From NCBI GenBank assembly GCA_024542975.1, contig JAMXCZ010000003.1, forward strand, positions 1 to 57,817: a stretch of 57,817 bases of DNA, in the 5' to 3' direction. The notes beneath the pieces are model-generated. The model was given only the letters and a program-made list of their open reading frames with translations, made no database searches and was not told where the DNA came from. The DNA is from Candidatus Omnitrophota bacterium. Lineage in GTDB: Bacteria > Omnitrophota > Gorgyraeia > JABMRN01 > RBG-13-46-9. This document shows, one piece after another, positions 523 through 25,113 of this stretch. The position numbers and the translations under genes are program-made. Every line of letters starts with the position of its first letter. Position 1 is the stretch's first letter.

Positions 523-551
523 TTGACATTTCTCATAAGTCCTTGTATAAT
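523..551 (+). promoter_or_regulatory. Consensus sigma70 promoter upstream of the truncated tRNA copy
   Basis: TTGACA (523-528), 17 nt spacer, TATAAT (546-551). Confidence 0.75.
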
Positions 552-633: not shown

Positions 634-673
634 GGGGCCATAGCTCAATTTGGTTAGAGCATCTGACTCATAA
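634..673 (+). repeat. attL core: 5' half of tRNA(CAT), 40-bp direct repeat
   Basis: GGGGCCATAGCTCAATTTGGTTAGAGCATCTGACTCATAA is identical to 24184-24223, and identity stops at the end of the anticodon loop. Confidence 0.95.
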
Positions 674-3272: not shown

Positions 3273-4379
3273 ATGGAAAAACACTCGGTTGTTAGTTTAT
3301 TTTCAGGATGTGGTGGGCTTGATTTTGGTTTCTACCAGGCTGGATTTAATCTAGTCTGGGCTAATGAAATTAGCGAAGATGCTGCGCAGTCCTATTCTAG
3401 CCTTTTAGGGCATAATGTTGTTACTGATGATATTTGGAGAGTAATTGAACAGGTGCCGCATAGCGATGTGGTTATTGGCGGTCCCCCTTGTCAGTCTTTT
3501 TCTCTAGTTGGCAAACGCCTAGAAACAGATCCGCGAGGAAAACTTGTTTTTGCTTATGAGCAAGTCATTAAAAACGCTAAACCACTAGCTTTTGTAATGG
3601 AAAATGTGCCTGGCTTGATGTCCTCCCATATTGATGGCACGCGATTGCATCTTTATTTAGCGGATCAATTTATGAAGTTGGGATACAAAGTTTCTATCTT
3701 AAAGTTGATAGCTACTGATTTTTTTGTTCCACAAAAAAGACGGCGAGTATTCATGATTGGTCACCGCATAGATGGAAAATCATTTGATCTTATTGATGCC
3801 GATGCCTTTGCAAAAATTCTTGGAGAACCTAATTTAAAATCCCCAGTTACTGTTTCAGATGCACTTGATGATTTACCGAATCCACTGCGCAAAGGCAACA
3901 AGGCTTCGGTAGCCTATAAATCATCACCACATTCGGCTTATTCTCAATTGATGCGTCAGAATGGCCCACAGGAAATTGAATTACAGACAATGCCAACTAT
4001 GTCAGAACTTGATCGAGAGTTTGTTAAGCATATCCCACCTGGCGGGAACTATAATAATATTCCCGATTCGATATCTACCAAGAGAATATTGTCCTTCAAG
4101 AAATCGGGTGGAAGAACCACAACATATGGTCGTTTACATCAAGACGCACCAGCTTATACGATCAACACATATTTTAATCGACCAAATGTGGGAGCAAACT
4201 ATCATCATGAAGAAGAGAGACTAATTACTGTTCGTGAAGCATTGCGTCTTCAGTCTTTTCCTGATTACTTTACTCCATATTATTCGAACCAAAGAAGTCT
4301 TCATATGCAGATAGGTAATGCTGTTCCGCCTCTCATGGCCAGAGCTGTTGCAGAATCTCTTAAAAGATTGCTCGCATGA
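3273..4379 (+). CDS. DNA (cytosine-5) methyltransferase
   Basis: Motifs FSGCGG (I), GGPPCQSFS (IV), MENVPG (VI), QKRRR (VIII), REALRLQSF (IX) and GNAVPP (X). Confidence 0.95.
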   Translation: MEKHSVVSLFSGCGGLDFGFYQAGFNLVWANEISEDAAQSYSSLLGHNVVTDDIWRVIEQVPHSDVVIGGPPCQSFSLVGKRLETDPRGKLVFAYEQVIKNAKPLAFVMENVPGLMSSHIDGTRLHLYLADQFMKLGYKVSILKLIATDFFVPQKRRRVFMIGHRIDGKSFDLIDADAFAKILGEPNLKSPVTVSDALDDLPNPLRKGNKASVAYKSSPHSAYSQLMRQNGPQEIELQTMPTMSELDREFVKHIPPGGNYNNIPDSISTKRILSFKKSGGRTTTYGRLHQDAPAYTINTYFNRPNVGANYHHEEERLITVREALRLQSFPDYFTPYYSNQRSLHMQIGNAVPPLMARAVAESLKRLLA

Positions 4380-5713
4380 TACAACAAGAAGTTATTAAAA
4401 AAGGTGAATTAGGACAGGTTTGGACTCCTAGCGATGTAGCTTGCGAAATGGCTAAAGAAGTATTAGCTGTAAACCCGCGTGCAAAGCATGTGCTTGATCC
4501 TGCTTGTGGTCCAGCAACTTTTTCAACTGCATTTGATAGCGCCGGAGCTAAAAATATAGATCTTGTTTGCTATGACGTTGATGAAACCATGAAGAAGTTT
4601 ACCGCCAAAACGAATCGGAAACTTGGGTTCAAGAGTAAAACTAGATTAGCTGACTACTTAGCAGATACTAGCTTAGAGGGAACTTTTGACACAATTATAA
4701 TGAATCCTCCGTATATTCGTCAAGAAGACATAGCAAAAGTTAACAAGGATAAATACCATCAGTATTTATCTCAAAATTTTAGAGAAAAAATTGACAAGAG
4801 GACTAACCTGTTTGCTCTGTTTCTGTTAAAAGGAACACTTGACCTAAAGCCTAATGGTGTAATGTGTGCAATTGTCTATGATGCCATTAGTCAAACCGAG
4901 TATGGGAAGAAGACGCTTAAACTTATGGATCGCCATGCTAAAATGTTATCTAGCAAACACGTTAAAATGCCTTTTGATGATGTTTTAGTTGACGCTCAAA
5001 TCCTACTATTTCGTAAAAGACAACATATATTGGAAGCGAGCGAATCCTACAAAGAAAGATGCGACGACAAGCTAACAACTCTTGAAAAGTTGCTTGATAC
5101 CCGTAGAGGAACTTGTTTCCCATTACGAAAGCTATTTATTGCTACCCGAAATGATCCATATTTTAGTTCTACGAGCCCTCTTTTTATTAAACAGCGCAAC
5201 ATTACAGGACTTGTAGTTAAGCCAGATCAGAGGGCGTATCTAGCTAATAAACCTCTTCGCGCTGAGATTTTTAAATGGCTGCATAAACGATCTGACAATC
5301 AGTTTCCATTATCAAAGATGGCCGTGCGCGGCATTAAAGGCCCCATTGTTTTCAATTACTATATGCGTAAAGCACCTCGCCATTTATGGAATCCAAAAAA
5401 CATTGCTGTAACAGACAATTTCTATGTTTCAACCCCAAGAAATGATTTTCCAAGTGAAATAGCTTGGTTTCTTTTGAATAGTGACCTCTATATATCTAAA
5501 CTTCTAAGGGCTGCTCGGAATCAGGGTAATGGGTTGTTAAAGCTGCAATTATTCGAATACAAAAATGTGCGAATGCCTGATTGGAATCGGATTCCAAAAA
5601 GGGAAATAGCAGCTTTGTCAAAAGTCGCGAAAGAGTTGATCAAAGATAATGCTAGTTACGAAACTATCAGGAAAATTGCTGATAAAGCAACAAAGGGGTT
5701 GTTTAATGCCTAG
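4376..5713 (+). CDS. N6-adenine DNA methyltransferase (gamma class, Eco57I-like)
   Basis: GQVWTP, LDPACG and NPPY motifs with a C-terminal TRD-like region. ATGA overlap with the upstream gene. Confidence 0.9.
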   Translation: MIQQEVIKKGELGQVWTPSDVACEMAKEVLAVNPRAKHVLDPACGPATFSTAFDSAGAKNIDLVCYDVDETMKKFTAKTNRKLGFKSKTRLADYLADTSLEGTFDTIIMNPPYIRQEDIAKVNKDKYHQYLSQNFREKIDKRTNLFALFLLKGTLDLKPNGVMCAIVYDAISQTEYGKKTLKLMDRHAKMLSSKHVKMPFDDVLVDAQILLFRKRQHILEASESYKERCDDKLTTLEKLLDTRRGTCFPLRKLFIATRNDPYFSSTSPLFIKQRNITGLVVKPDQRAYLANKPLRAEIFKWLHKRSDNQFPLSKMAVRGIKGPIVFNYYMRKAPRHLWNPKNIAVTDNFYVSTPRNDFPSEIAWFLLNSDLYISKLLRAARNQGNGLLKLQLFEYKNVRMPDWNRIPKREIAALSKVAKELIKDNASYETIRKIADKATKGLFNA

Positions 5714-8306
5714 GCCAATTTTGCCATCATATTCATCACCCGAAAATACAGTGTTTCATCCAGCTTTTAAATATGCTGTTGAAGAAGCAATTGCTCGCAA
5801 AGGGCTTACTGGAACCATTGATATTAAGGGGCAATATCCTACTCCGACTGGACCTGCAGATTTCGCGTTGTTCAACAATTCAACTCAAAGAGTATTAATG
5901 CCGATAGAGATAAAGAGAACTCAAGGAAGTGCCAGAGGACCTGGAAGACGACAAGCTCGTGATTATTGGGTGAATTTAGGGCGCGCAACGCCATTTTATT
6001 GCGTATCGAATTTAGAGTTAACGGAGCTATTCAGAAATGATACTCTTCGTCCAAGGACATCTGCTCAGCTCTTAAAATTATCCAATGCACATGCTGGTCA
6101 ATTAGGTGTTACACAGCCAAACGACCTATATGACAATCTTATTTTATGCATGGAAGAGATACTTGATCTATTGCTTGGCATATCCAGTCCAGTTTACGTA
6201 ACTGGGCTTGTCGAATTTCAGGCGCATATAGAGAATGTAATAGGCAATGCGTCGGCTTGGCACAAAATATTCATACCGGCATGCTATGAATACATTAGAG
6301 GTGCCGCGTCACTAGGCGGCCCACTTTCTACTCTAATTGCGTCTTGGAGAGCAGCAGATTTCTTTAAAAACAATCCCCAGCGGCTTAATCAACTTGGTAG
6401 TGCTGTTGACTTTGAACATATATTCAAAATTCCAGACCCAGATCCCAATGACCCGATTGCTTTTGCTCAAATAGTATTGAAAGAATTGTATGAGAGCGGT
6501 AAGGCGCTTGGCCAGGGAGATGATATAGCAGAGCTTGTTAATGAAGCCTTAGCGCCAGCTGGGTTGGGAATAATCGAAACTGATGTTGAACTGGCTCAAT
6601 TATTATCTGTTGTAGCAAGAGTTGCATTAGGCAGAGACTTGAAACCAAATGAAGAAGTGGTTGATCCTGCGGCTGGAAGCGGTCGTATCTTAACGGCGCT
6701 GTTACTAACCGCATTTCCAGGGCTAACTCCACGCCAAGTTAGAGCCATTGAGAAGGAACAGCTTTTTGCAGAATCTTTAAGTCTTCGCTTGGGTTTGGCA
6801 TTTGCTCCAGTGATCTCTGCAGCTAACTCTCCAACGGTAACTATTTCACCCATTGAGTCAATAAATCCATCCGAATTTGAAAACGTCCGTATTGTTTCCA
6901 TGAATCCTCCTTTTATGTCTGGCGTTCAGGCTGCTAGCTTGAAAGGGTCATTTGTTAGTCGCATTAGAGCCGTTTCTGGCAGACCGTCTGTATTAAGCAG
7001 TGGTCAGATAGCTCTTGAGGCTTTATTTCTTGAGCTTATTTGGCATTTGGTTAAGCCAGAAACAATCATTGCTACAGTTTTTCCTTTCCAACATTTATCG
7101 AGAAGATCGGATGAGGTAGTTGCTTTACGGCGTTTTCTTGCTGAAACTTTTGCTTTAACACATATCGTAGTTTATCCAAGCGCAGGTCTTTTTCAAGAAG
7201 TTATTAAACAGACCGTTTTGCTCGTTGGGAAAAAAGGAGCGACTGAAGAAGATGTAAAGGTTGTCGAAATACAAAAGCGAGTTGCAGATGTTGATTTTTC
7301 TGAAATGCTTAACCAAATGCTCAGTGGTAGTTTAAACCCAACGCATGGTGTTTTAATAAAATCTGTGCCACGATGTGATCTTATGTCTAGTATTTCTGAC
7401 GGCTGGAAGGGAATATTTGGTTCAGGAGCATTGAGCCAAGCATTTCTGCAAAAATATATGAGCAGTTTTTCTTCAATTGAAGACCTTGGATCTGCCAATG
7501 TCACCAGGGGGTCTGTAGGAAATCATGGTAACACAAAATTAACAGTTTTTAATTCACCCAACCCGAGGTATCTTAGCGTTTTCAACTTAATTCCACCTCT
7601 TTGGTTAAAGCCAGTTCTTAACAAAACAGTAAATATGCCTAGAGACCTAACCCCTACTAATGCGCCACAGATGTCATTTGTACCGCCACCTTCTGCTTAC
7701 CAAGCAGGAACAGCAGAAAATCAAACATTGCGGTCAATCGTTCAGAAATATCTGTTGGTATATGTTCCACCGCGAGGAAGTCAAACGCGCAGGGTTAAGA
7801 CAGAGGATGAAATTATAAGTGATCTACAGGCAGACCAGAGAGTTCCTGGCTCCGGGTGGGTGCTAATCCAACGGGCTTCAAGAACACAGGGAGAAATTGG
7901 CTTACTAGAGCATAATGGTATTTTGTTGTCGACAAATGTTCCTATGGTTAAACTTCCTACAGATAGAGAAAGAAAGCTACTGGCCTCCTGGGTTCTTTCG
8001 GTTTTTGGACAGATGCAGCTTAATATTCTTGGAACATCTCAAGAAGGTATGCGTAAGCTAGAGATATCTTCCATTAAAGGGCTATTGTATCCGGATTTTT
8101 CTGTTATTTCTGCAGCTATTGCAGCAACATTGCTTTCAACCCTTATGACTGAACCGGCTTTGTCCTTTAACCAAATTCAGCAACGGTCGTCGGACCAACT
8201 TTGGGCAGAAGTGGTTGATCCTGCTGATTCTACCACGTGTCTAGTTCAAGCATTTGAAATCTTTCAACAGCAAGTTGAAGAGCTGCAAAATTTTGGGAAT
8301 ACATAA
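5706..8306 (+). CDS. Type IIG/IIC-like restriction endonuclease-methyltransferase fusion
   Basis: N-terminal PD-(D/E)xK-like PADFALF...IEIK, central DPAAGSG and NPPF, C-terminal specificity-like region. Start placed at ATG 5706. Confidence 0.75.
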   Translation: MPRPILPSYSSPENTVFHPAFKYAVEEAIARKGLTGTIDIKGQYPTPTGPADFALFNNSTQRVLMPIEIKRTQGSARGPGRRQARDYWVNLGRATPFYCVSNLELTELFRNDTLRPRTSAQLLKLSNAHAGQLGVTQPNDLYDNLILCMEEILDLLLGISSPVYVTGLVEFQAHIENVIGNASAWHKIFIPACYEYIRGAASLGGPLSTLIASWRAADFFKNNPQRLNQLGSAVDFEHIFKIPDPDPNDPIAFAQIVLKELYESGKALGQGDDIAELVNEALAPAGLGIIETDVELAQLLSVVARVALGRDLKPNEEVVDPAAGSGRILTALLLTAFPGLTPRQVRAIEKEQLFAESLSLRLGLAFAPVISAANSPTVTISPIESINPSEFENVRIVSMNPPFMSGVQAASLKGSFVSRIRAVSGRPSVLSSGQIALEALFLELIWHLVKPETIIATVFPFQHLSRRSDEVVALRRFLAETFALTHIVVYPSAGLFQEVIKQTVLLVGKKGATEEDVKVVEIQKRVADVDFSEMLNQMLSGSLNPTHGVLIKSVPRCDLMSSISDGWKGIFGSGALSQAFLQKYMSSFSSIEDLGSANVTRGSVGNHGNTKLTVFNSPNPRYLSVFNLIPPLWLKPVLNKTVNMPRDLTPTNAPQMSFVPPPSAYQAGTAENQTLRSIVQKYLLVYVPPRGSQTRRVKTEDEIISDLQADQRVPGSGWVLIQRASRTQGEIGLLEHNGILLSTNVPMVKLPTDRERKLLASWVLSVFGQMQLNILGTSQEGMRKLEISSIKGLLYPDFSVISAAIAATLLSTLMTEPALSFNQIQQRSSDQLWAEVVDPADSTTCLVQAFEIFQQQVEELQNFGNT

Positions 8307-13610: not shown

Positions 13611-13838
13611 TTAAGCTTTTCCTTTGAAATTAAGCAGTTTTGAAAGGCTTATACGAAAGGCATTAGCGAGCTTTTCTAGCGTATCTATCGTGGCTCCGGA
13701 GGGATTTTTACCTTCCAATAGTTGAATGTGTTTATAGTCTACCCCGGATAATTCCGATAACTTTTCTTGGGTATAACCCCGCTTCTTACGCAATTCTCTT
13801 AATCTTACCGCAAGCTTGAGCTTAGTTCCCATGTTCAT
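13611..13838 (-). CDS. XRE-family transcriptional repressor
   Basis: RLRELRKKRGYTQEKLSELSGVDYKHIQLLE...TLEKLANAF. It is the only credible minus-strand gene in the element. Confidence 0.88.
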   Translation of the reverse strand: MNMGTKLKLAVRLRELRKKRGYTQEKLSELSGVDYKHIQLLEGKNPSGATIDTLEKLANAFRISLSKLLNFKGKA

Positions 13839-13870
13839 AACGACACAATTATCACATACTTTGCTAGTCG

Positions 13871-13899
13871 TTGACACCGTAAGAATACGGTGATATACT
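13871..13899 (+). promoter_or_regulatory. Rightward promoter with overlapping palindromic operator
   Basis: TTGACA-17-TATACT with extended TG. The palindrome CACCGTA-AGAA-TACGGTG (13875-13892) fills the spacer. Confidence 0.75.
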
Positions 13900-13956: not shown

Positions 13957-14160
13957 ATGAGTCCTACAGATAAAATCCTATTTTTTTTAATTGTAACTAT
14001 CGAGAAAAGCCGGAGAAGGCTACTCGTTTGGCTAAAGCAAAAGCCATTTCTCTGTGGGGCTGTTGTAGTTTTTATCTCAAGTTTCATAATACCCCGCTAT
14101 TTCATACAAGCTCTTGTTTTGGCTATGGCTTTGTTTGTGATGCAGTTAAAGACAAGGTGA
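13957..14160 (+). CDS. Small membrane hypothetical protein
   Basis: 67 aa with a hydrophobic C-terminal half, first ORF after the promoter. Confidence 0.45.
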   Translation: MSPTDKILFFLIVTIEKSRRRLLVWLKQKPFLCGAVVVFISSFIIPRYFIQALVLAMALFVMQLKTR

Positions 14161-14165
14161 AGAAT

Positions 14166-14384
14166 ATGGACAAGCCGATATTGCTAGACCGGGGAGAGGC
14201 AGAGAGGATCGCTGGTGAAATACTAGACAAGCTCGAGCCAGAGAATTACCCGAAGATACTGGCCCTAACAAGGGAATCAGCAATCAGGGGGATCGTGGAT
14301 GGCGCGGCCGTGGGGAACGACCAGTACCGGGAAGGGTTCCTGACGAACACGGTGTTAGTGATGGAAGCCGACTTGTCGTATTAG
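14166..14384 (+). CDS. 72-aa hypothetical protein, paralog 1
   Basis: 54/72 aa identical to 15076-15294 (hand count), with an AAGGTG SD. Confidence 0.8.
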   Translation: MDKPILLDRGEAERIAGEILDKLEPENYPKILALTRESAIRGIVDGAAVGNDQYREGFLTNTVLVMEADLSY

Positions 14385-15058: not shown

Positions 15059-15075
15059 AAAAGAAGGTGAATAAT

Positions 15076-15294
15076 ATGGACAAGCCGATACTACTAAACC
15101 GAGAGCAGGCCGAGAAGATCGCAAGCGAGATATTGAACGAGCTCGAGCCGGAGAACTACCCGAAGCTCCTGGCGTTAAACCGGGAATCAGCGATAAGGCG
15201 GATCGTAGACGGCGCGGCGGTGAGCAAAGACCAATACGAGGAAGGCTTCCTGACGAACGCCGTGTTGACGAACGAGAGCGACCTGTCCCGTTAG
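15076..15294 (+). CDS. 72-aa hypothetical protein, paralog 2
   Basis: Paralog of 14166-14384 with the same upstream AAGGTGA..AAT ATG context. Confidence 0.8.
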   Translation: MDKPILLNREQAEKIASEILNELEPENYPKLLALNRESAIRRIVDGAAVSKDQYEEGFLTNAVLTNESDLSR

Positions 15295-16275: not shown

Positions 16276-17592
16276 GTGAAAGGACTGAAAAAAATGAGAC
16301 AAGCAAAAGAAGAAAATCTACCTACAATACCGCATAACGAAGAAGCCGAACGCGCTTGTTTGGCCTCACTCATACTAGACAAAAACCTCATAAACGAAGC
16401 TATCGAGACTATTGCTCCCGAGCATTTCTACGGCGCTCGAAATAGGACCGTGTATAAAGCCATACTTACCCTTGCAAAAGAAGGAAAGCCGGCAGACCTT
16501 GTAGTCTTAAACGACGTTTTAAAGAATAAGGACGTTCCCGCGTCCTTTTTGGTCGAACTTACTGCCTCAATTCCTACATCCGCAAACTTTCGCCATTACG
16601 CAGAAATACTTAAAGGCCACTATGTCCGGCGCCTGACAATAGAGAAATCATACCGCCATATCGAGGAGGCTCAAACTACCGATGATTATTCCGGACTTCT
16701 CGCTTTAGTAACGCAAGAATTTTCTAAGCTTGCCCAGGAGCAGATTAAAAGCGATATCCTGTCACCAAAGGAGTTGGCTAAGATAGGATTGAAGGATTTC
16801 ACCGATAGGCTTGATAATAAAATTGATTTTACAGGCTTTTCCAGTGGCTATTATCAGCTTGATAGGCTATGCGGAGGCTTTGGTCGAGGCGATCTGGTTA
16901 TCGTGGCTGGCCAGACAAGCATCGGCAAGAGCGCGTTCCTTTTAGATATTGCTTATCGGCAATCGATCCGAGGAGGCCTTAAATGCGCTTATTTTAGCCT
17001 GGAGATGGGTGTTTTTGAGATAGTCTATCGCCTTCTAAGTAAGATGACTTTTTTGGAATCCACCGCTATAAAAGCGCCTAAGCTTTTAAAAGAAGAACAA
17101 ATAAAAAAAGTCATACAGGCTGCAAATGCTCTGCACGATTCCAATTTTTTCCTCGATATCATGCCTATCATCAATCTTGAAAAGCTCTTGGCTAAAGCGC
17201 GAAAGATAAATGCAAAGGAGAATATCGACTTAATTTTTATAGACTACATACAGCTCATATCAACCAGGGTTAAAAATCAGGCAAGACACGAGGTTCTTTC
17301 GGATATAACTAAGGACCTAAAGCAGCTTGCCCGGGAGCTTGAAGTACCGGTAATCGCCGGCGCGCAACTTAACAGATCCACGCTCGAGAAAGCAGAGCCC
17401 AAGTTAAGCCATATCGGGGAAAGCTTTGCGATCGTGCAACATGCCGATTCCGTGATTTTAATTTCAAGAAACGACGCAAATGCAACCCTCAATATAGCCA
17501 AAGCCCGGCAAGCCAAAGGCGGAAAATTCGACTTAAGATTCGATTTTAAAACAGTCTCCTTTGTGGAGCGGGAGGTAGCTAATGATTTATGA
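16276..17592 (+). CDS. Element-encoded DnaB-like replicative helicase
   Basis: PHNEEAERACL N-terminal domain, Walker A AGQTSIGKS, FSLEM, IFIDYIQL, AQLNR and AKARQ. The start may be 16294. Confidence 0.92.
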   Translation: MKGLKKMRQAKEENLPTIPHNEEAERACLASLILDKNLINEAIETIAPEHFYGARNRTVYKAILTLAKEGKPADLVVLNDVLKNKDVPASFLVELTASIPTSANFRHYAEILKGHYVRRLTIEKSYRHIEEAQTTDDYSGLLALVTQEFSKLAQEQIKSDILSPKELAKIGLKDFTDRLDNKIDFTGFSSGYYQLDRLCGGFGRGDLVIVAGQTSIGKSAFLLDIAYRQSIRGGLKCAYFSLEMGVFEIVYRLLSKMTFLESTAIKAPKLLKEEQIKKVIQAANALHDSNFFLDIMPIINLEKLLAKARKINAKENIDLIFIDYIQLISTRVKNQARHEVLSDITKDLKQLARELEVPVIAGAQLNRSTLEKAEPKLSHIGESFAIVQHADSVILISRNDANATLNIAKARQAKGGKFDLRFDFKTVSFVEREVANDL

Positions 17593-17890
17593 GACTACTG
17601 ATATAAAACTTGGAGCTGCAATCCTCGCTGAAATCCTTGAGACCTTCTTCGTGGGTATTAGCAAAGAGAACTGTGTCGGCACAAAGAGACCTATCAAAAT
17701 AACCTATTCTGAGGAATACGCGGAGACGTTGAAAAAACTAATAGGAGACTACGAGAGAAAAGTTTTAATGGTAAATTTATACGAGTTTAATCGCGCGTTA
17801 TTTCTGATACGCAATGCGCTATTCGGAAGAAGTGGACATAATGGAAACGGATTGAGAGAAAGGAAGGCCGGAGGTGCAACTAGACGATAG
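17582..17890 (+). CDS. DUF5659-like phage/ICE protein
   Basis: YETTDIKLGAAIL...LYEFNRALFLIRNALF pattern, in a replication-module context. Confidence 0.55.
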   Translation: MIYETTDIKLGAAILAEILETFFVGISKENCVGTKRPIKITYSEEYAETLKKLIGDYERKVLMVNLYEFNRALFLIRNALFGRSGHNGNGLRERKAGGATRR

Positions 17891-18362
17891 AAAGAAGCGA
17901 ACCGTTCGAATCCCTACCGAAATATGGGAAGCCTTAACAAAGGTTAGAATTAGTGGTGAAGAATGGCAATGTTTATGTTTGATTTTAAGAAAAACTTACG
18001 GCTGGCATAAGAGCAAGGATTGGATATCCAATTCACAGTTTGTTAATGCTACCGGGATTAAGAAGCAGAGTGTAAATAGGGCGTTAAAAAAATTGATAGC
18101 GAAAAATATAGTAAGCAAAAAAGCTTACGAAAGTAGGCAGTTTTACGGATTAAACGAAGATCTTCGGAGATGGAAACCGTCAGCAAAAAAGCTTACTAAA
18201 AATGTAAGCAATAAAGCTTCTGGTAGTAAGCCAAAAAGCTTCTCAGATGTAAGCAATAATGCTGCCCACAAAAGCATTATTACAAAAGCATCTATTACAA
18301 AAGAGAAAGAGTTTGAAAAAACATTTGGTAAGAATCCAGAAGAATTTATAAGAAGAGTGTAG
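17874..18362 (+). CDS. Phage replication initiator, lambda O N-terminal type
   Basis: EAL...ILRKTYGWHKSKDWISNSQF...TG...RALKKL, with internal iterons. Confidence 0.85.
   Translation: MQLDDRKKRTVRIPTEIWEALTKVRISGEEWQCLCLILRKTYGWHKSKDWISNSQFVNATGIKKQSVNRALKKLIAKNIVSKKAYESRQFYGLNEDLRRWKPSAKKLTKNVSNKASGSKPKSFSDVSNNAAHKSIITKASITKEKEFEKTFGKNPEEFIRRV
18111..18304. repeat. Iteron array / replication origin inside the initiator gene
   Basis: Five 18-bp quasi-palindromes GTAAGC-N6-GCTTAC at 18111, 18179, 18204, 18226 and 18249, followed by AT-rich CAAAAGCA..TATTA repeats. Confidence 0.8.
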
Positions 18363-18696: not shown

Positions 18697-19137
18697 ATGA
18701 GAGGAAGAAAATTACAGATACCCGGCCAATGGAGCGTTAAGCAGCTAAGATTGCAGCAGATGCTAGCCGATCCGTTTGATAAGCGCGTTTTAGCTGAAAA
18801 AGCCAAAGAGGTAGGTATTAGCGAGCGCGTCCTTTACAAATGGAAAAATATGCCTGGCTGGCAAGATACTGTTTTTGAAATAGCGAAGAAATGGATAGGC
18901 GATGGCGCGCCAAAGGTATTAAGGGCCCTATATCATAAAGCAAAGGATACGGGGGATCCGGTATGTGTAAAGCTGTATTTGGAGATTATCGGTAAATATA
19001 CGCAGAAAACCGAGATGGACATTAGGGCAGGGAGGTTAGAGGAATTGAGCGATGAAGAGCTTAGAGACATTATCGCGAAAGGAGCTGCTTTTCAAAGCGG
19101 AGGCAGCGGGGGAGCTCCAAAGACGCTACCGGGATAA
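18697..19137 (+). CDS. Putative terminase small subunit (phBC6A51-like HTH)
   Basis: HTH AEKAKEVGISERVLYKW, then ALYHKA..GD...KLYLE and LSDEEL. It overlaps terL. Confidence 0.75.
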   Translation: MRGRKLQIPGQWSVKQLRLQQMLADPFDKRVLAEKAKEVGISERVLYKWKNMPGWQDTVFEIAKKWIGDGAPKVLRALYHKAKDTGDPVCVKLYLEIIGKYTQKTEMDIRAGRLEELSDEELRDIIAKGAAFQSGGSGGAPKTLPG

Positions 19138-20488
19138 CAGGATAGCGTATTATAATCCCCATAGGCTGCAGGAAAAGTTCCACAAGAGTCAGGCAATTAT
19201 TCGCCTGTTTCTCGGAGGAAATGGTGCCGGTAAAAGTATTGCTGGCGCTACTGAGACGACTTGGGCCTCCATAGGAAAACACCCTTATTGGAAATATCCC
19301 GTTCCATCAAGGGGTCGAATCGCGACTACATCATTTGATAAAATCGAACAAGTGATAATCCCTCAATTAGAGGCTTGGATTCCCAAAAGACAGGTCAGAG
19401 ACCGGAAGAAGAACAATCTTGGCATATATGCAAAATGGTGGCTTAAAAATGGCACTTTTTTCGATATTCTATCATATCAGCAGGATGTTGAGGAGTATGA
19501 GGGCGTTGATCTTGACTGGTTTTGGAGTGACGAGCCTATGCCTAAAGATAGATACCAAGCGACATTAGCGCGGTTTAGAAGAGTAGGCCGTATATGGATG
19601 ACACTAACGCCTTTAACTGAGCCCTGGATACTTGATGAGCTTGTTAATAACGCTGATGGAGAGTATATAGACGTGATAACAGCAGATATCATGGATAACT
19701 GTGTCGAAAAAGGCGGATACCTAAGCCGGGAAGCTATCGACTTAATGCTCAAGGGCTATGATGATGATGAGAAAGAAGCCCGGGCACATGGCCGTTTTAT
19801 CTTCCTGCAGGGCCTAATATATAAGTCTTTCGATAGAGATGTTCATGTTGTCGAGCCTTTTGATATTCCTAAAGACTGGACAAGGAAATGCATTGTAGAC
19901 CCACATGATCGGAAACCTTTTGCTATTGGGTGGCAAGCAACAAGTCCTACAGGCGACATATATGTGTATGATGAATGGCCGGAGTATGAGTTCCACAAGA
20001 AGAAGAGTTGCGATTTGACAATCGAGGATTATGCTAATGTTATCAAGATAAAAGAAGAAAAGCAGTTTATTGCAAGACGTCTTATCGATCCAAACTTCGG
20101 CAATGCCATAAACGTCCATACTAAGACTACGATAAAGCAAGATCTCGAGAATTACGGACTTGATTTCGAGGACGCTATTAATGATATACAATCTGGCCAT
20201 TTGAAGGTGAAGGAATATCTTAAATACGATAAATTAAAACCTCTGAGTAATACCAATAAGCCGAAGATCTATTTCTTTAAGACATGTCGAAATCATATCC
20301 ATGGAATGAGCCATTATTTATGGGATGAGTTCGCGGATAAGTCACGTTCGCCCAAACAGAAACCAAAAGATGCAAATAAAGACTTTCCCGATGTCGTCAG
20401 GTACGGGCTCATGGACGATTCGGGTTATCAGATTTTTAATGACGATATGTTAGCGTATCTGAAACATTACAAAGGCATGTCGACATGA
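19052..20488 (+). CDS. Terminase large subunit
   Basis: Q motif LQEKFH, Walker A GGNGAGKS, Walker B WFWSDE, motif III TLTP, nuclease IVDPH...LIDP...KDFPDVVRY. Confidence 0.92.
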   Translation: MKSLETLSRKELLFKAEAAGELQRRYRDNRIAYYNPHRLQEKFHKSQAIIRLFLGGNGAGKSIAGATETTWASIGKHPYWKYPVPSRGRIATTSFDKIEQVIIPQLEAWIPKRQVRDRKKNNLGIYAKWWLKNGTFFDILSYQQDVEEYEGVDLDWFWSDEPMPKDRYQATLARFRRVGRIWMTLTPLTEPWILDELVNNADGEYIDVITADIMDNCVEKGGYLSREAIDLMLKGYDDDEKEARAHGRFIFLQGLIYKSFDRDVHVVEPFDIPKDWTRKCIVDPHDRKPFAIGWQATSPTGDIYVYDEWPEYEFHKKKSCDLTIEDYANVIKIKEEKQFIARRLIDPNFGNAINVHTKTTIKQDLENYGLDFEDAINDIQSGHLKVKEYLKYDKLKPLSNTNKPKIYFFKTCRNHIHGMSHYLWDEFADKSRSPKQKPKDANKDFPDVVRYGLMDDSGYQIFNDDMLAYLKHYKGMST

Positions 20489-21213
20489 CAGAGCTACTCA
20501 GAGGAAATATTAAAGACGGTCTCGGCGGCAAGGAATTTTACGAGGTGGAAAAAGGGGAGTATACGATTTTAGAAAAGCCGAAACATTCTACTCAATACTT
20601 ATGTTCTGTGTGGCTTTCGCCCGGTATCTATAAGTTTAAAAGCTACATTATGGTTTTTGAGAAGACGCCCGGGGTAATCCGGCAGATTGCGGAATGGGCT
20701 GATATAACTTCACCTTCTCAGATAGAATCCGTGTTTGATAAGCTTGTAAGCTATTACTCTTACGAGACTATGCAAAGAATAATGGTCGGCGTAGGAAGGA
20801 ATACCCGGGGGGGGAATTTGATAAATGCCTTAGCAGGTAACCCAAGAAAACAGTATGACTTGTATAGAGAAAAAACAAGAGATGCTTCGACAGGTGTTAT
20901 GGAGCCGAAGGCGGGCATAATTGATGATGATAAAAACAGAATCGCTTTAATAGACGATTTACAAGAAGCCTTTTCCAATAACAGAATATACCCCTTACCG
21001 GATAGTAATGTAGATGTTCTAAAAAACATCATAGTTGATAAGGAGAAATATACAATCCCCGAGAAATATGAAGCTTATATTTTGTCCTTAGCTGGAGCTT
21101 ATAGGGTGTTTAAAGAGCATCCGCACAGAAAGCCGGTAGATCGCACGAGGATTAAAGCATTAATACAGGAACGGAGACAGAGATTAAACAATCCGTTTAG
21201 GAGATCTACATAG
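20485..21213 (+). CDS. Stand-alone TerL C-terminal nuclease-like domain, catalytic acids apparently lost
   Basis: Pattern ILEKP...YLCSVWLSPG...RQIAEW...VGVGRNTRGG...LIDDLQEA...YEAYILSLAGAY tracks the TerL RNase-H domain. Confidence 0.55.
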   Translation: MTELLRGNIKDGLGGKEFYEVEKGEYTILEKPKHSTQYLCSVWLSPGIYKFKSYIMVFEKTPGVIRQIAEWADITSPSQIESVFDKLVSYYSYETMQRIMVGVGRNTRGGNLINALAGNPRKQYDLYREKTRDASTGVMEPKAGIIDDDKNRIALIDDLQEAFSNNRIYPLPDSNVDVLKNIIVDKEKYTIPEKYEAYILSLAGAYRVFKEHPHRKPVDRTRIKALIQERRQRLNNPFRRST

Positions 21214-21265
21214 CCAGCGGACGAAAAATGCAAAAAAGTAGAAAGTGAGATAGATAGCGACTCCT

Positions 21266-21457
21266 ATGGAGAAGGTAGAGCAGAGGTATCTAAACGTAAA
21301 GGGCGTGGCAGCGTATTTAGGAACTACGCCGCTTACGATATATGATTGGGTGCGGAAGAGGAAGGTACCGGTTCATAAGCTTAATGGGAGCTTGAAGTTT
21401 GATAAGCTGGAAATAGATAGAATGATGGAAGAAAATCGAGTTAAAGAAATGGATTGA
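21266..21457 (+). CDS. xis: Excisionase / HTH_17 DNA-binding protein
   Basis: YLNVKGVAAYLG...TIYDWV...VPVHKLNGSLKFDKLEIDR. Confidence 0.85.
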   Translation: MEKVEQRYLNVKGVAAYLGTTPLTIYDWVRKRKVPVHKLNGSLKFDKLEIDRMMEENRVKEMD

Positions 21458-21482
21458 AATAGAAAGTATATGTGGCTATAAT
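21454..21482 (+). promoter_or_regulatory. sigma70 promoter for RT (and possibly int and the tRNAs)
   Basis: TTGAAA (overlapping the xis stop), 17 nt spacer, TATAAT. Confidence 0.7.
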
Positions 21483-21512
21483 AACCTTTAAAGGGTACTT
21501 TAAATTGTAACA

Positions 21513-23099
21513 ATGAAGATAATAAGTTTATTAAAAAAGGGTTATTTTCCGAAAGAGTTACCGCCGGCATTTACAACAGAATATTTTGCTAATAAATATT
21601 CCGCAATAGCAAAAGATTATAGAAAATTAGGTATAAGAGAAAAAAGTGAATCAAAGTGTGTCAATTTTTCGATTTTGAGGCAATTTTATTCCAGAAGGGA
21701 TTTAGGGATCCCGAATCCAATACATCAGTCGAACTTATCGAAATGCATTTGTGACAATTGGGCGCAAATTAATCGGTTTTATAAAAAATCACGAATTTCT
21801 GCAAGCAAACCAATAGTCGATTTATCACACAAACGGGCAGTCAGAACTAATTCATTTGCGGAATTTAAAAAACTTCGTTTACTTAATTCCTACGATAAAA
21901 TTTATGAACTAAAAACAGATATCTCCAGGTTTTACGCAACGCTCTATACTCATGCCATTCCCTGGGCGTTGCATACGAAAGCTGTAGCAAAGAGGCCGCC
22001 AAGGGATCCTAGATTATTGGGCAATGTGTTGGATAAAAGCATACGTGCCTGCCAGGCACGTCAATCGATAGGTATCCCTGTGGGCCCTGATACGTCATTA
22101 ATTATTGCAGAAATAATCAGTTGCGAAATCGATAATATTTTGCAGAATAAATTTAAAGATCTAAGGGGATACAGATATTACGATGATTATTATTTCTTTT
22201 TTTCAAAGCTAGAAGATGCGGAAAAAGTATTAAAAGAATACCAATGCACTTTAACAAGCTTAAATTTGGATATAAACGAAGAAAAGACAGAAATAAGAGA
22301 ACACCCTATACCATCCGATAAGGTTTGGGCAATTGAAATAGGTTCATTCAGGTTTCGCAATTCAGATAAAACACAAGAAAATGATCTAGAAAAATTTTTC
22401 AGCATATCCTTTAAATTTGCAAAAGAGAATCCAAAAGATTCAGTATTAAAATACGCAATTAAAAAAATTGAATATATTAAAATAAGGAACAAGAACTGGC
22501 CTTTTTTTGAGTCATTACTTTTAAAAACTGCGCTTGTTGCGCCTTTAACTTTGCCGGAAGTAACACGAATTTTATATAGTTATTCAAAAAGAGTTGATAA
22601 AAGTAAAGTAAAAAACGTAGTCGAGCAGATAATTGAAAAGCATGTTCTCATGGGGCATTCGTTCGAGGTATCATGGTCTCTATGGCTGGCTAAGACTTTT
22701 CACTTAAAAATCAACGACGATATCGCAAAGCATATTTTTAATTCTAGCGATGTTATCTCTATTTTAATTGCACTTGATCTAAAAAGTATGCGTTTAATCG
22801 ATTCGAAAGTAGACACTAGTAGTCTGCTAAATGAATTAACCGAAAATTCTCTGTACGATGATAAATGGCTATTAACTTACGAATCAATAATTAAAAAATG
22901 GTTGAACCCAACTTCAGATCCAGTTAGTATCGAGCCATATTTCAAAACATTGAAAAAGCATAAAGTTAGATTTTATGACGGCACCAAACAAGTAGAAATT
23001 ATTAAGTTTAAAAAGCGAAGAAGGGCACCAACTCCATTCCCTGGACTAGCAAGACATCTACGAATGTTTTATGCCGATGAAGAACCGGATGAAATCTAA
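21513..23099 (+). CDS. Reverse transcriptase, UG/Abi class-1 type (AbiK/Abi-P2/DRT-like), putative anti-phage
   Basis: GYFPKELPPAF, LGIPNP, DISRFYATLYTHAIPWA, GIPVGPDTSLIIAEI, YRYYDDY and INEEKT motifs, with a helical C-terminal domain. Confidence 0.9.
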   Translation: MKIISLLKKGYFPKELPPAFTTEYFANKYSAIAKDYRKLGIREKSESKCVNFSILRQFYSRRDLGIPNPIHQSNLSKCICDNWAQINRFYKKSRISASKPIVDLSHKRAVRTNSFAEFKKLRLLNSYDKIYELKTDISRFYATLYTHAIPWALHTKAVAKRPPRDPRLLGNVLDKSIRACQARQSIGIPVGPDTSLIIAEIISCEIDNILQNKFKDLRGYRYYDDYYFFFSKLEDAEKVLKEYQCTLTSLNLDINEEKTEIREHPIPSDKVWAIEIGSFRFRNSDKTQENDLEKFFSISFKFAKENPKDSVLKYAIKKIEYIKIRNKNWPFFESLLLKTALVAPLTLPEVTRILYSYSKRVDKSKVKNVVEQIIEKHVLMGHSFEVSWSLWLAKTFHLKINDDIAKHIFNSSDVISILIALDLKSMRLIDSKVDTSSLLNELTENSLYDDKWLLTYESIIKKWLNPTSDPVSIEPYFKTLKKHKVRFYDGTKQVEIIKFKKRRRAPTPFPGLARHLRMFYADEEPDEI

Positions 23100-24179
23100 A
23101 TGAGCTTATACAAAAGAGAAAAAAACTGGTATATAGATTATCACGCTTATGGAAAGCGCATTAGGGAAGTCATAGGGGCCGACAGAAAGCTTGCTGAAAC
23201 CGTTCTTGCCAAACGAAAGCTTGCCATAACAGAAAACCGTTTTCTTGATATAAAAAAGAAAAGCAGAACAACCTTCAATGAACTGTGCGATCTTTACATA
23301 GAACTTCACGCAAAACCCAATAAGAGGCATTGGCAAAGGTCAGATGCGCTTCACCAGAGGCGCTTAAAAGAGTTTTTTGGCAATCCAAGAATAGCGGCGA
23401 TAGCTCAGGAGCAAGTAGAGCTATATAAGGCAAAGAGGCTTGAAGAAGTGTCGCCTGCAACCGTTAATCGAGAATTAACTTGCCTTAAGCACATGTTTAA
23501 TAAGGCAATCGAGTGGAAGAAGATCGAATATAATCCTGCAGCGAGGGTTAAGAAGCTCAGGGAGAACAATGCCAGAATGCGTTACTTAGAAAAAGAAGAA
23601 ATTAGAACGCTGATAGATAACTGTAATGATACCGTTAGGCCGGTTGTAATTCTTGGACTATATACAGGTATGCGGCAAGGGGAGATGCTTAACCTTAAAT
23701 GGCGAGACATAGATATAGGTAAGGGCATACTGTACATATTAAGGACAAAGAATGACGAACCGAGAGAAATCCCAATGTGTGATATTGTAAAGAGGACTCT
23801 CATAGCAATTCCAAAACACAAAGATAGTCCTTATGTGTTTTGCAAAAAGAATGGTAAGCCTTATGGGAAGCTTAGGAAAAGCTTCTTGCAAGCATTGGAT
23901 AAATCTGGTATACTACATTTTCGTTTTCACGATCTTAGACATACTTTCGCGTCGCAATTTATGATGGCAGGCGGCGAGCTTAATACTTTGAGAGAGCTTT
24001 TGGGCCATAAGGATATTAAGATGACATTAAGGTATTCTCACTTGTCAAGAGACCATAAACGCAGGGCAATGGAGAATTTTGACCGGCAGATGGTCACAAA
24101 TCGGTCACAAGCGCCGGAAACAAACTTTTTAGATAGTTTACGCGATTCTCATAACATCTTTGAAAATAAAGAGTTATAG
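23100..24179 (+). CDS. int: Tyrosine integrase
   Basis: TGMRQGE (R), TKN (K), HDLRH, LLGH and RYSH catalytic residues, with an N-terminal arm-binding region. Confidence 0.96.
   Translation: MSLYKREKNWYIDYHAYGKRIREVIGADRKLAETVLAKRKLAITENRFLDIKKKSRTTFNELCDLYIELHAKPNKRHWQRSDALHQRRLKEFFGNPRIAAIAQEQVELYKAKRLEEVSPATVNRELTCLKHMFNKAIEWKKIEYNPAARVKKLRENNARMRYLEKEEIRTLIDNCNDTVRPVVILGLYTGMRQGEMLNLKWRDIDIGKGILYILRTKNDEPREIPMCDIVKRTLIAIPKHKDSPYVFCKKNGKPYGKLRKSFLQALDKSGILHFRFHDLRHTFASQFMMAGGELNTLRELLGHKDIKMTLRYSHLSRDHKRRAMENFDRQMVTNRSQAPETNFLDSLRDSHNIFENKEL
24093..24111 (+). repeat. Integrase arm-type site inside the 3' end of int
   Basis: GTCACAAATCGGTCACAAG matches 797-815. Confidence 0.7.
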
Positions 24180-24183
24180 CACT

Positions 24184-24261
24184 GGGGCCATAGCTCAATT
24201 TGGTTAGAGCATCTGACTCATAATCAGGTGGTTCCTGGTTCAAGTCCAGGTGGCCCCACCA
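24184..24261 (+). tRNA. tRNA(CAT), probably tRNA-Ile2; contains attR
   Basis: Cloverleaf with GGGGCCA/TGGCCCC acceptor stem, CT-CAT-AA loop, GTTCAAG T-loop and encoded CCA. It resembles Ile2 and lacks initiator features. Confidence 0.92.
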
Positions 24262-24312
24262 CTTTTTGTTATTGGGTAAGAAATATAGCGAGAGAGCGAG
24301 GGATGGCTAAAA

Positions 24313-24389
24313 GGGCACATGGCTTAGCTGGTTAAAGCGCTGCGTTCACATCGCAGAGATCAAAGGTTCGAATCCTTTTGTGCCCACCA
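24313..24389 (+). tRNA. tRNA-Val(CAC)
   Basis: GGGCACA/TGTGCCC acceptor stem, CTGCG-TT-CAC-AT-CGCAG anticodon arm, GTTCGAA and CCA. Confidence 0.93.
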
Positions 24390-24396
24390 CTTAATT

Positions 24397-25113
24397 ATGA
24401 AAGAGATAAACATGAAAGAGCAGATGAAAATGTTGGTTGAGCTGCAGAAGCTTGATGCGGAGATCTTTGACAGAAAGAAGATATTGGAGGAAGTGCCGGT
24501 CAGGATAAAAGAGCTGGAGAATGGGTTGGAGGCAAAATCAACGCACCTGAAGAGCCTGGAAGAGGACCTGAAGAAGCTCAAGGTCAGCCAGAAACAAAGG
24601 GAAATGGACCTGGAAACAAAGGAGCAGGGGATAAAAAAACATCAGGGGCAGCTTCATCAGATCAAGACAAACAAGGAGTATGCGGCTTTGGAAAAGGAGA
24701 TCGCGAGCCTTAAGGCCGATAATTCCCTGCTGGAGGAAGAAATCATCAATTTGCTTGACCAAAGCGACGAGATGCAGAAGGCCGTGTCCGGCGAGAAGAA
24801 AGTCCTGGAAGACGAAAATAAAAAGTCAGTGGAAGAAAAGAAAAAGATCGAGGCTGAAAAGAATAAAAGCGAAGCGGAATTGAACAATTTAAACGCCAAG
24901 CGCCTGGAATTCGCAAAAAATATAGATCAGGGTATTTTGCCAAAGTATGAAAGAATTTTGCACAACAAAGCGGGGCATGCCGTAGTTTCCATAGCGGGAA
25001 ACGCCTGCGGCGGCTGCAATATGAGTTTACCGCCCCAGGTGATAAATGAGGTTAAGCTTCGGGCTTCACTTATTTTCTGTGAGAACTGCGCAAGAATACT
25101 CCACGCGGAATAA
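24397..25113 (+). CDS. C4-type zinc-ribbon coiled-coil protein (DUF164 type)
   Basis: LQKLD coiled coil, then CGGC...CENCARIL. Confidence 0.9.
   Translation: MKEINMKEQMKMLVELQKLDAEIFDRKKILEEVPVRIKELENGLEAKSTHLKSLEEDLKKLKVSQKQREMDLETKEQGIKKHQGQLHQIKTNKEYAALEKEIASLKADNSLLEEEIINLLDQSDEMQKAVSGEKKVLEDENKKSVEEKKKIEAEKNKSEAELNNLNAKRLEFAKNIDQGILPKYERILHNKAGHAVVSIAGNACGGCNMSLPPQVINEVKLRASLIFCENCARILHAE

Follow-up and report, generated by a model that had tools for sequence, protein, structure and literature searches.

The closest described relatives of the system reported here are the DRT6 (UG12) enzymes, which gave moderate protection against T5 and ZL-19 that was abolished by mutation of the reverse transcriptase (RT) active site, and several UG12 representatives are predicted to be viral in the study that gave the group its DRT name (Mestre et al. 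2022, PMC9226505). A DRT6 from Sphingopyxis is described as oligomeric, with template-independent DNA covalently attached to the protein, and as acting by abortive infection, being activated by T5 ORF55 and toxic in the absence of sbcB (PMC12783706). DRT4 is reported to form a dimer-of-trimers hexamer and to make random, protein-primed single-stranded DNA (Wang et al., PMC12783706), and 2026 preprints (one of them 10.64898/2026.10.21.760695) attribute to it an RNase activity that depends on single-stranded DNA-binding protein and on deoxynucleoside triphosphates. AbiK and Abi-P2 are class 1 UG/Abi enzymes that carry out protein-primed, untemplated DNA synthesis, and Abi-P2 is located in a variable region of a prophage (PMC9226505). 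Here we describe an RT of the DRT6/UG12 type whose gene lies between the excisionase-like gene (xis) and the tyrosine integrase gene (int) of an integrative element in a bacterium of Candidatus Omnitrophota. The stretch of DNA analyzed, 57,817 nucleotides (nt) of contig JAMXCZ010000003.1, is called the window throughout, and all positions refer to it. The locus consists of the following features.

21266 to 21457, plus strand: xis, an excisionase-like HTH_17 gene (Pfam HTH_17, 1.6e-09; phrog_66 excisionase, 3.2e-09)
21454 to 21482, plus strand: sigma-70-type promoter-like site TTGAAA-17-TATAAT, matching the consensus at 11/12 positions (-35 at 21454-21459, -10 at 21477-21482)
21483 to 21512, plus strand: leader, of which AACC (21483-21486) is common to related elements and the remaining approximately 26 nt arrived with the RT, as judged against the relatives G008 and G034
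21513 to 23099, plus strand: RT, a DRT6/UG12-type class 1 UG/Abi reverse transcriptase of 528 amino acids (aa)
23097 to 23102, plus strand: stop-start junction TAAATG of RT and int
23100 to 24179, plus strand: int, a tyrosine integrase of 359 aa (Pfam Phage_integrase, 1.4e-29; Int_N, 7.5e-14; phrog_1)

Sequence and predicted fold agree on the family to which the RT belongs. The PADLOC model Drt6 (PDLC03748) matched it at 1.8e-181 and 602.5 bits, with protein residues 3-507 aligned to positions 4-496 of a 511-position model, and scores were far lower for the Drt4 model of the same series (PDLC03752, 285 bits), RT_UG30 (255), AbiK (169), and AbiP2 (138); Pfam RVT_1 matched at 3.4e-10. In a phmmer search of the PDB, the Sphingopyxis DRT6 chain 9wy8_A matched RT residues 2-494 at 5e-83 and 282 bits, followed by UG15/DRT4 at 2.2e-29 and 105 bits and by AbiK at 1e-23. 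An AlphaFold2 model built with 34 homologues was confident (pLDDT, the predicted local distance difference test, 88.6; pTM, the predicted template modeling score, 0.87), and its top Foldseek match was again 9wy8_A, entitled "Cryo-EM structure of the hexameric DRT6" (E 8e-34; template modeling [TM] score 0.88/0.94; root mean square deviation 2.0 A). The two superpose over 499 columns, including a C-terminal alpha-helical repeat domain that stands in the place of the thumb and spans approximately residues 285-482 of the RT, ahead of a disordered tail at 503-528. DRT4/UG15 structures followed with TM scores of 0.77-0.84, and AbiK (0.57-0.68) and Abi-P2 (0.61/0.66) are distant by this measure as well as by their PADLOC scores.

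The RT is thus, by sequence and modeled structure, a full-length member of the DRT6/UG12 type of class 1 UG/Abi enzymes, a label that the solved structures settle. Like the Sphingopyxis protein it is a single-gene class 1 UG/Abi enzyme in the range of approximately 510-560 aa with an RT domain followed by an alpha-helical repeat domain, and even the numbering of the catalytic aspartates is nearly equal (D223/D224 in 9wy8, D224/D225 here). It differs in that identity over the Foldseek alignment is 33%, in that the active-site motif is YYDD rather than YVDD, and in that its gene is cargo of an integrative element, flanked by xis and int, in a small-genome lineage. The family around it is large, with 1,653 proteins at E <= 1e-10 among 8,000 candidates scored; the best is 63% identical to the RT, and identities among the best 120 homologues are mostly 46-53%. 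A first-pass annotation of this DNA had recognized a single-gene, noncoding RNA (ncRNA)-free UG/Abi-class RT with a helical C-terminal domain, all of which our analysis supports, but it had also suggested an uncharacterized subfamily, had proposed a PADLOC search, and had held that clustering within a characterized family would lower the novelty. That search returned a known family (Drt6, 602.5 bits), one with a relative that has been experimentally tested and structurally solved, and so the idea of a novel subfamily fails on the annotation's own terms.

The catalytic residues give the same picture of an ordinary family member. The motif reads Y222-Y-D224-D225, with D136 in the palm, and although the first-pass annotation had called YYDD unusual, it occurs in 28 of the 118 homologues in which a motif was found (among the best 120: YIDD, 35; FIDD, 31; YYDD, 28; FVDD, 9; YVDD, 5; others, 10; unmatched, 2). 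An alignment of 34 sequences has 62 invariant columns, among them D136, Y145-T146-H147, D174, and D224-D225, and the RT keeps all 62. On the phmmer alignment with DRT4 (UG15) of E. coli (PDB 9vdo/9vdv/21ou), with which the RT shares its fold, its domain order, and a disordered C-terminal tail, D136, H147, D174, D224, and D225 fall on D149, H160, D192, D240, and D241; the catalytic aspartate triad is aligned. In DRT4, D149, D240, and D241 are described as metal-binding aspartates, and H160/D192 as the proposed H/D pair of the RNase (PMC12783706; 10.64898/2026.10.21.760695), which corresponds to H147/D174 of the RT.

By analogy with Sphingopyxis DRT6 and DRT4, the RT should have polymerase and antiphage activity. 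It would form a hexamer, make untemplated, protein-primed single-stranded DNA, and be switched on when a phage single-stranded DNA-binding protein binds the DNA that it has made; the infected cell would then be killed or arrested in an abortive infection, possibly through an RNase site of the DRT4 type. For this it would need neither an ncRNA nor a partner gene.

The layout of the locus leaves little scope for such an RNA. As the first-pass annotation had it, the ORFs (open reading frames) and the letters give a 528-aa RT with 55 nt between the xis stop TGA (21455-21457) and the RT ATG (21513) and with no nucleotide between the RT and int, where the sequence reads gaa atc TAA and continues directly as ATG agc. 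To our knowledge, no ncRNA is expected for class 1 UG/Abi enzymes. The same annotation saw no room for one, a view that is borne out by the neighbors themselves, xis and int, by an Rfam scan of 20400-24500 (E <= 1) that returned nothing beyond two tRNAs and chance-level matches, and by RNA folds that were no better than those of shuffled sequences (z of -0.31 for the leader and 0.08 for the junction). A retron, a group II intron, and a DRT2-type ncRNA were each considered and rejected, given the lack of an Rfam family and of a significant fold; in the Foldseek comparison, retron and group II intron RT structures reached TM scores of just 0.27-0.53 against the RT model.

How the RT came to lie between xis and int can be judged from related elements. 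When 400 further genomes of the same bacterial class were sampled, 45 had a homologue of Int at E <= 1e-60, and 30 of these loci were analyzed (L010, L016-L018, L120-L145). In 25 of the 30, the 1.6 kb upstream of int contain an xis-like ORF. In 10 of these 25, int overlaps xis or follows it by at most 116 nt, with no ORF longer than 30 aa between them, and in approximately 10 of the 25 the interval holds an ORF of 45-62 aa encoding a ribbon-helix-helix or second helix-turn-helix (HTH) protein (eight by ORF tally and two, G163 and G087, by eye). In the relatives, xis is succeeded by int, either directly or after a small ORF. An RT occupies this interval in none of the 30 and was seen there in the window only; a search with the RT protein as the query likewise matched 0 of 40 relatives. 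Larger cargo occupies the interval in 5 of the 30, as follows.

G077 (L125): a STAND-like ATPase of 401 aa (nSTAND1, 2.6e-08)
G179 (L144): an AAA_14/DUF4143 protein (PADLOC candidate PDC-S01, 2.3e-48)
G138 (L145): a nucleotidyltransferase (PDC-M05A, 7.7e-17) with a weak HEPN partner (Pfam E 0.0021)
G080 and G325: unknown ORFs of 156 and 90 aa, respectively

The comparison of xis-int intervals, which the first-pass annotation had proposed, accordingly agrees with its view that the RT was inserted there, and the interval is a variable one that sometimes holds defense-type genes.

The promoter-like site at the end of xis is shared with these relatives. In the window, the xis stop TGA falls inside its -35 hexamer, and just seven sites of this quality (>=11/12) exist on both strands of the 57.8 kb, this one included; the others occupy plausible places, namely before a displaced tRNA half, at a repressor/early-gene switch, and before mraZ. 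At the looser 9/12 threshold, the region shows no enrichment (14 sites, with 11.6 expected). Among the relatives, a site of >=10/12 in a 75-nt span around the xis stop was present in 9 of 25 loci, compared with 60 of 3,685 background windows taken from those loci (1.6%), and in G163, G034, G149, and G041 the xis TGA lies within the -35 hexamer (TTGACA; TTGACT in G149) exactly as it does here. In most cases a start codon, either of int or of a small ORF, follows the -10 by only 4-15 nt, and the resulting int or small-ORF messages would therefore be leaderless or nearly so. G008 reads TATAATAACCGTAT and then directly ATG, the start of int; G034 reads TAGAATAACCCT and then ATG, the start of a small ORF; the window has TATAATAACC in common with the relatives and then departs into the 26-nt leader and the RT ORF. 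These comparisons indicate that the element family has conserved the xis-stop promoter, which would normally drive int. The first-pass annotation was right about a near-consensus promoter whose -35 overlaps the xis stop, but its reading of the site as the RT's own is not supported, the site being conserved at the xis stop of relatives that carry no RT there.

The int promoter of phage lambda, pI, is located at xis, an arrangement in which the transcript codes for Int but not for Xis. The promoter in the window is also placed at xis; unlike pI, it is near consensus and lies at the xis stop rather than at the xis start. A further difference is that the promoter of the relatives would give a leaderless or near-leaderless message, and in the window a defense gene precedes int.

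The simplest reading of the alignment is that an insertion of approximately 1.6 kb (about 21487-23099) separated int from its post-xis promoter and brought in the RT with a leader of approximately 26 nt and without a 3' untranslated region. The near-consensus promoter would then transcribe the RT first and int second. Within the leader, between the -10 and the RT start, positions 21487-21504 form an inverted repeat (TTTAAAG-N4-CTTTAAA). Its RNA would make a weak hairpin of 5 bp that folds no better than shuffled sequences, and the repeat could equally be a protein-binding site.

At the other end of the RT, the organization is apparently that of a single transcription unit, as the first-pass annotation had supposed. 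xis, RT, and int are consecutive ORFs on a common strand, a sequence scan found no terminator-like site between RT and int, no promoter-like site lies just upstream of int, and the stop of one gene abuts the start of the next. A stop codon that abuts a start codon is the classic arrangement for termination-reinitiation. Ribosomes ending at the RT TAA would most likely restart at the adjoining ATG and so translate int, and it is plausible from the junction that int translation is coupled to that of the RT. Tight junctions with the upstream gene recur in the Int family, where xis and int are separated by 0 nt in G306, 9 nt in G336, and 15 nt in G115 and overlap by 14 nt in G337. Two other ideas were rejected: a read-through fusion of RT and Int, since any stop codon placed directly against a start codon leaves both ORFs in one frame and since TAA ends more window ORFs (25 of 51) than either of the other stops, and an alternative genetic code, since all three stops are in use.

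Taken jointly, these results establish the family of the RT (from its sequence and fold), its insertion, the homology of the promoter with that of the relatives, and the junction with int. They make it probable that an intact DRT6 RT is carried here as cargo between a conserved post-xis promoter and int, that RT and int would share a transcript, and that int would be translated by reinitiation. Several points weigh against this account. The promoter, co-transcription, and reinitiation are each read from sequence, and int may be translated independently, as an SD-like (Shine-Dalgarno) motif is missing, by a crude motif test, from 29 of the 51 window ORFs of >=130 aa. An RT followed by int is also not typical of DRT6 genes in general. 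We examined 103 loci of RT relatives, with the RT ORF found in 101, and where >=1.2 kb of downstream sequence was present (68 loci) the RT was never directly followed by an Int homologue (by phmmer with the window Int, which misses distant recombinases). As for function, the preprints show RNase activity for DRT4 alone, and on the phmmer alignment the position of the DRT4 priming residue Tyr125 is N113 in the RT. The protein also ends in ...RMFY(519)ADEEPDEI and so is among the 9 of the 120 best homologues that lack Tyr in the last 3 residues, and if the terminal position of that Tyr matters, for example for priming, its activity could differ from that of its relatives. Finally, the top PADLOC score overall belongs to an older model labeled Drt4 (PDLC02177, 616 bits), and a second model with that label, PDLC02179, scored 572.

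The context of the RT relatives offers some further comparisons. An Int homologue lies within 4 kb of the RT in at least 10 loci, and in at least 6 it lies within 236 nt upstream on the RT strand (both lower bounds from phmmer). A terminator hairpin comes after the RT in L041 (60% identity), the nearest relative on a contig that shows its surroundings. When viral contigs were scanned with the Int or the RT sequence singly, no relative was returned, and relatives there were reached by an alignment-based scan instead; among 50,697 records of sequenced phage isolates, the sole RT match was Abi-P2 of P2-EC58, at 28.7% identity over 44% of the query.

It is possible, though we think it rather unlikely, that int is expressed independently of the RT, with TAAATG reflecting compact packing only and with expression arising from an unrecognized promoter in the 3' end of the RT gene or from ribosome entry at the A-rich start of int. 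The frequent lack of an SD-like motif speaks for this, since an organism in which 29 of 51 ORFs lack one evidently initiates without it, and weak 9/12 promoter-like sites exist within the RT at 22551 and 22645. Moreover, the ancestral int appears leaderless in the relatives, and its start region may therefore recruit ribosomes well. By the same token, an int without an SD motif is explained by the leaderless or near-leaderless ancestral gene, which never needed one, and the first-pass observation that int has no clear SD, while correct in that no motif was seen, says little when so many window ORFs are alike in this. Set against independent expression are the lack of any plus-strand site of >=9/12 in the final 425 nt of RT, the lack of a terminator before int, the textbook junction, and its recurrence in the family.

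A different role for the post-xis promoter, one in tRNA expression, was also considered. In 24 of the 30 related loci, or 24 of 27 when only those with >=100 nt of downstream sequence are counted, a tRNA on the int strand begins between -37 and +24 nt relative to the int stop, and at least 10 amino-acid specificities are represented; judged by these sequences, the Int family integrates on the 5' side of tRNA genes. Integration in tRNA 5' regions is reported to be much rarer than in 3' regions (PMC6563490). The post-xis promoter might exist to transcribe a tRNA that has been cut off from its own promoter, but this idea is weakened by a second promoter-like site that could do the same job.

23886 to 23914, plus strand: promoter-like site TTGCAA-17-TATACT within int, its position conserved in the Int family

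Of 30 relatives, 17 have a site of >=10/12 in the final 400 nt of int, compared with 1 of 30 in a control stretch. These sites read TTTACA-17-TATAAT or similar, and in 15 loci the -10 ends 247-289 nt ahead of the int stop; they could drive the downstream tRNA that integration has severed from its own promoter. The site overlies a conserved peptide, FFT...GII, ahead of the HDLRH box, and protein conservation may account for part of its own.

We consider it improbable that the RT is an inactive or altered passenger that has lost priming or defense along with the family-typical end of its tail. In the 120 best homologues, in which the overall frequency of Tyr is 3.9%, Tyr is the final residue in 88, lies within the last 3 residues in 111, and lies within the last 12 in all 120. 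This pattern, an observation made here and not a published criterion for DRT6-like proteins, is one that the RT lacks, and it makes the tail Tyr a candidate priming or regulatory residue of the family. Also in favor of a passenger is the distribution of the gene. No strong match to the Drt6 model was found in the 400 class genomes (5 matches, all <=178 bits compared with 602 here, and none in a genome that carries Int), and there is therefore no sign of long-term maintenance in the lineage. In contrast, the ORF is full length, all 62 invariant positions are kept, and the model is confident; in the two nearest homologues (P0002 and P0003), whose tails are as long as that of the RT, an internal F-x-x-Y aligns with Y519, and the other eight exceptions likewise have Tyr followed by 4-9 further residues.

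It is very improbable that the RT serves the element itself, by priming its replication or by modulating integration and excision. Its location within the recombination module and a transcript in common with int would fit such a role, but the 30 related elements do without an RT in this interval, the element has its own DnaB and initiator, the RT family has been shown to act in defense alone, and the interval is filled elsewhere by unrelated cargo (PDC-S01, a nucleotidyltransferase with HEPN, and a STAND-like ATPase). That the RT is a DRT4 (UG15) member is exceedingly unlikely in spite of the two older Drt4 models, as solved DRT4/UG15 chains fall well behind the DRT6 chain in phmmer (105 bits versus 282) and Foldseek (TM scores of 0.77-0.84 versus 0.88/0.94), the priming Tyr125 and a 6-residue loop with K24/S26 of DRT4 are unmatched in the RT, and the Drt4 model from the series of the Drt6 model reaches just 285 bits.

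The PADLOC 2.0 result is nevertheless of practical interest as a labeling conflict, in that models named Drt4 score 616 and 572 bits, next to 602.5 for Drt6, on a protein that is structurally DRT6. An automatic caller might name the RT DRT4 because its best model is so labeled, and automatic naming within the DRT4/DRT6 group may be unreliable.

The element that carries the RT is 23.5 kb long and, from its sequence, lies at approximately 634-24223 in the 5' half of a tRNA-Met gene. Its other features are as follows.

523 to 551, plus strand: TTGACA-17-TATAAT site upstream of the displaced tRNA-Met 5' half, the sole 12/12 site in the window
634 to 673, plus strand: attL core, a 40-nt exact copy of the tRNA-Met 5' half
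3273 to 4379 and 4376 to 5713, plus strand: DNA methyltransferases (PHROGs; PADLOC MTase_II) of a defense module
5649 to 8306, plus strand: Type IIG restriction enzyme-methyltransferase of the same module, 885 aa (PHROGs; PADLOC REase_MTase_IIG PDLC03605, 1.3e-129)
13611 to 13877, minus strand: Cro/C1-type HTH repressor-like gene (Pfam HTH_3, 1.9e-10), the sole minus-strand gene of the element
from 13871, plus strand: rightward TTGACA-17-TATACT site, 11/12
16276 to 17592, plus strand: DnaB-like helicase (PHROGs)
17874 to 18362, plus strand: O-like replication initiator (PHROGs) with internal 22-nt repeats at 18111-18247
18697 to 19137 and 19052 to 20488, plus strand: small and large terminase subunits (PHROGs; Pfam Terminase_6N)
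24184 to 24261, plus strand: intact tRNA-Met (CAT), of which the first 40 nt (24184-24223) are the attR core

The direct repeat that bounds the element (626-673 and 24176-24223) is 94% identical over 48 nt and exact over 40 nt (634-673 and 24184-24223), and G+C content falls from 0.479 in the host flank to 0.393 in the element without the RT and 0.337 in the RT. A search for an empty site with the left flank (1-633) gave no match in 13 genomes from the family of the host, and the left border is therefore placed by the att repeat and G+C content alone. The 12/12 site at 523-551 is probably the promoter that originally served the tRNA gene and now remains at attL. Among the element ORFs scanned with PHROGs or Pfam, none was assigned to a capsid, portal, or tail family, and the element may be satellite-like or defective, or its structural genes may belong to undescribed families. 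From 8.5 to 16 kb, most ORFs are without matches and short, the majority being <200 aa. A 236-nt direct repeat of 76% identity (14149-14384 and 15059-15294) covers the small early ORFs 14028-14384 and 15067-15294, which are apparently paralogues. With the RT and the Type IIG restriction-modification genes, the element holds two defense modules.

Our findings place a known defense gene, one already named, tested, and structurally solved as DRT6/UG12, in a new carrier and in an unusual genetic position. They provide a clean natural example of how a single-gene defense system can be slotted into a mobile element without disturbing it, in that the RT came without a 3' untranslated region, borrowed the int promoter, and left int as what would be a coupled second cistron. 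They also draw attention to a near-universal C-terminal Tyr in DRT6-like proteins and, in an uncultivated small-genome class, to a family of Int proteins that integrate at the rarely used 5' side of tRNA genes and whose xis-int interval holds varied cargo. We speculate, and only tentatively, as it seems to us doubtful that every part of this proposal holds, that the interval from the xis promoter to int is a dedicated cargo slot throughout this family of 5'-tRNA integrative elements, that DRT6 captured a formerly leaderless int promoter, and that int is now made solely by ribosomes that finish the RT. If so, defense gene and recombinase would be genetically locked together, and the RT would be kept expressed in the integrated state.

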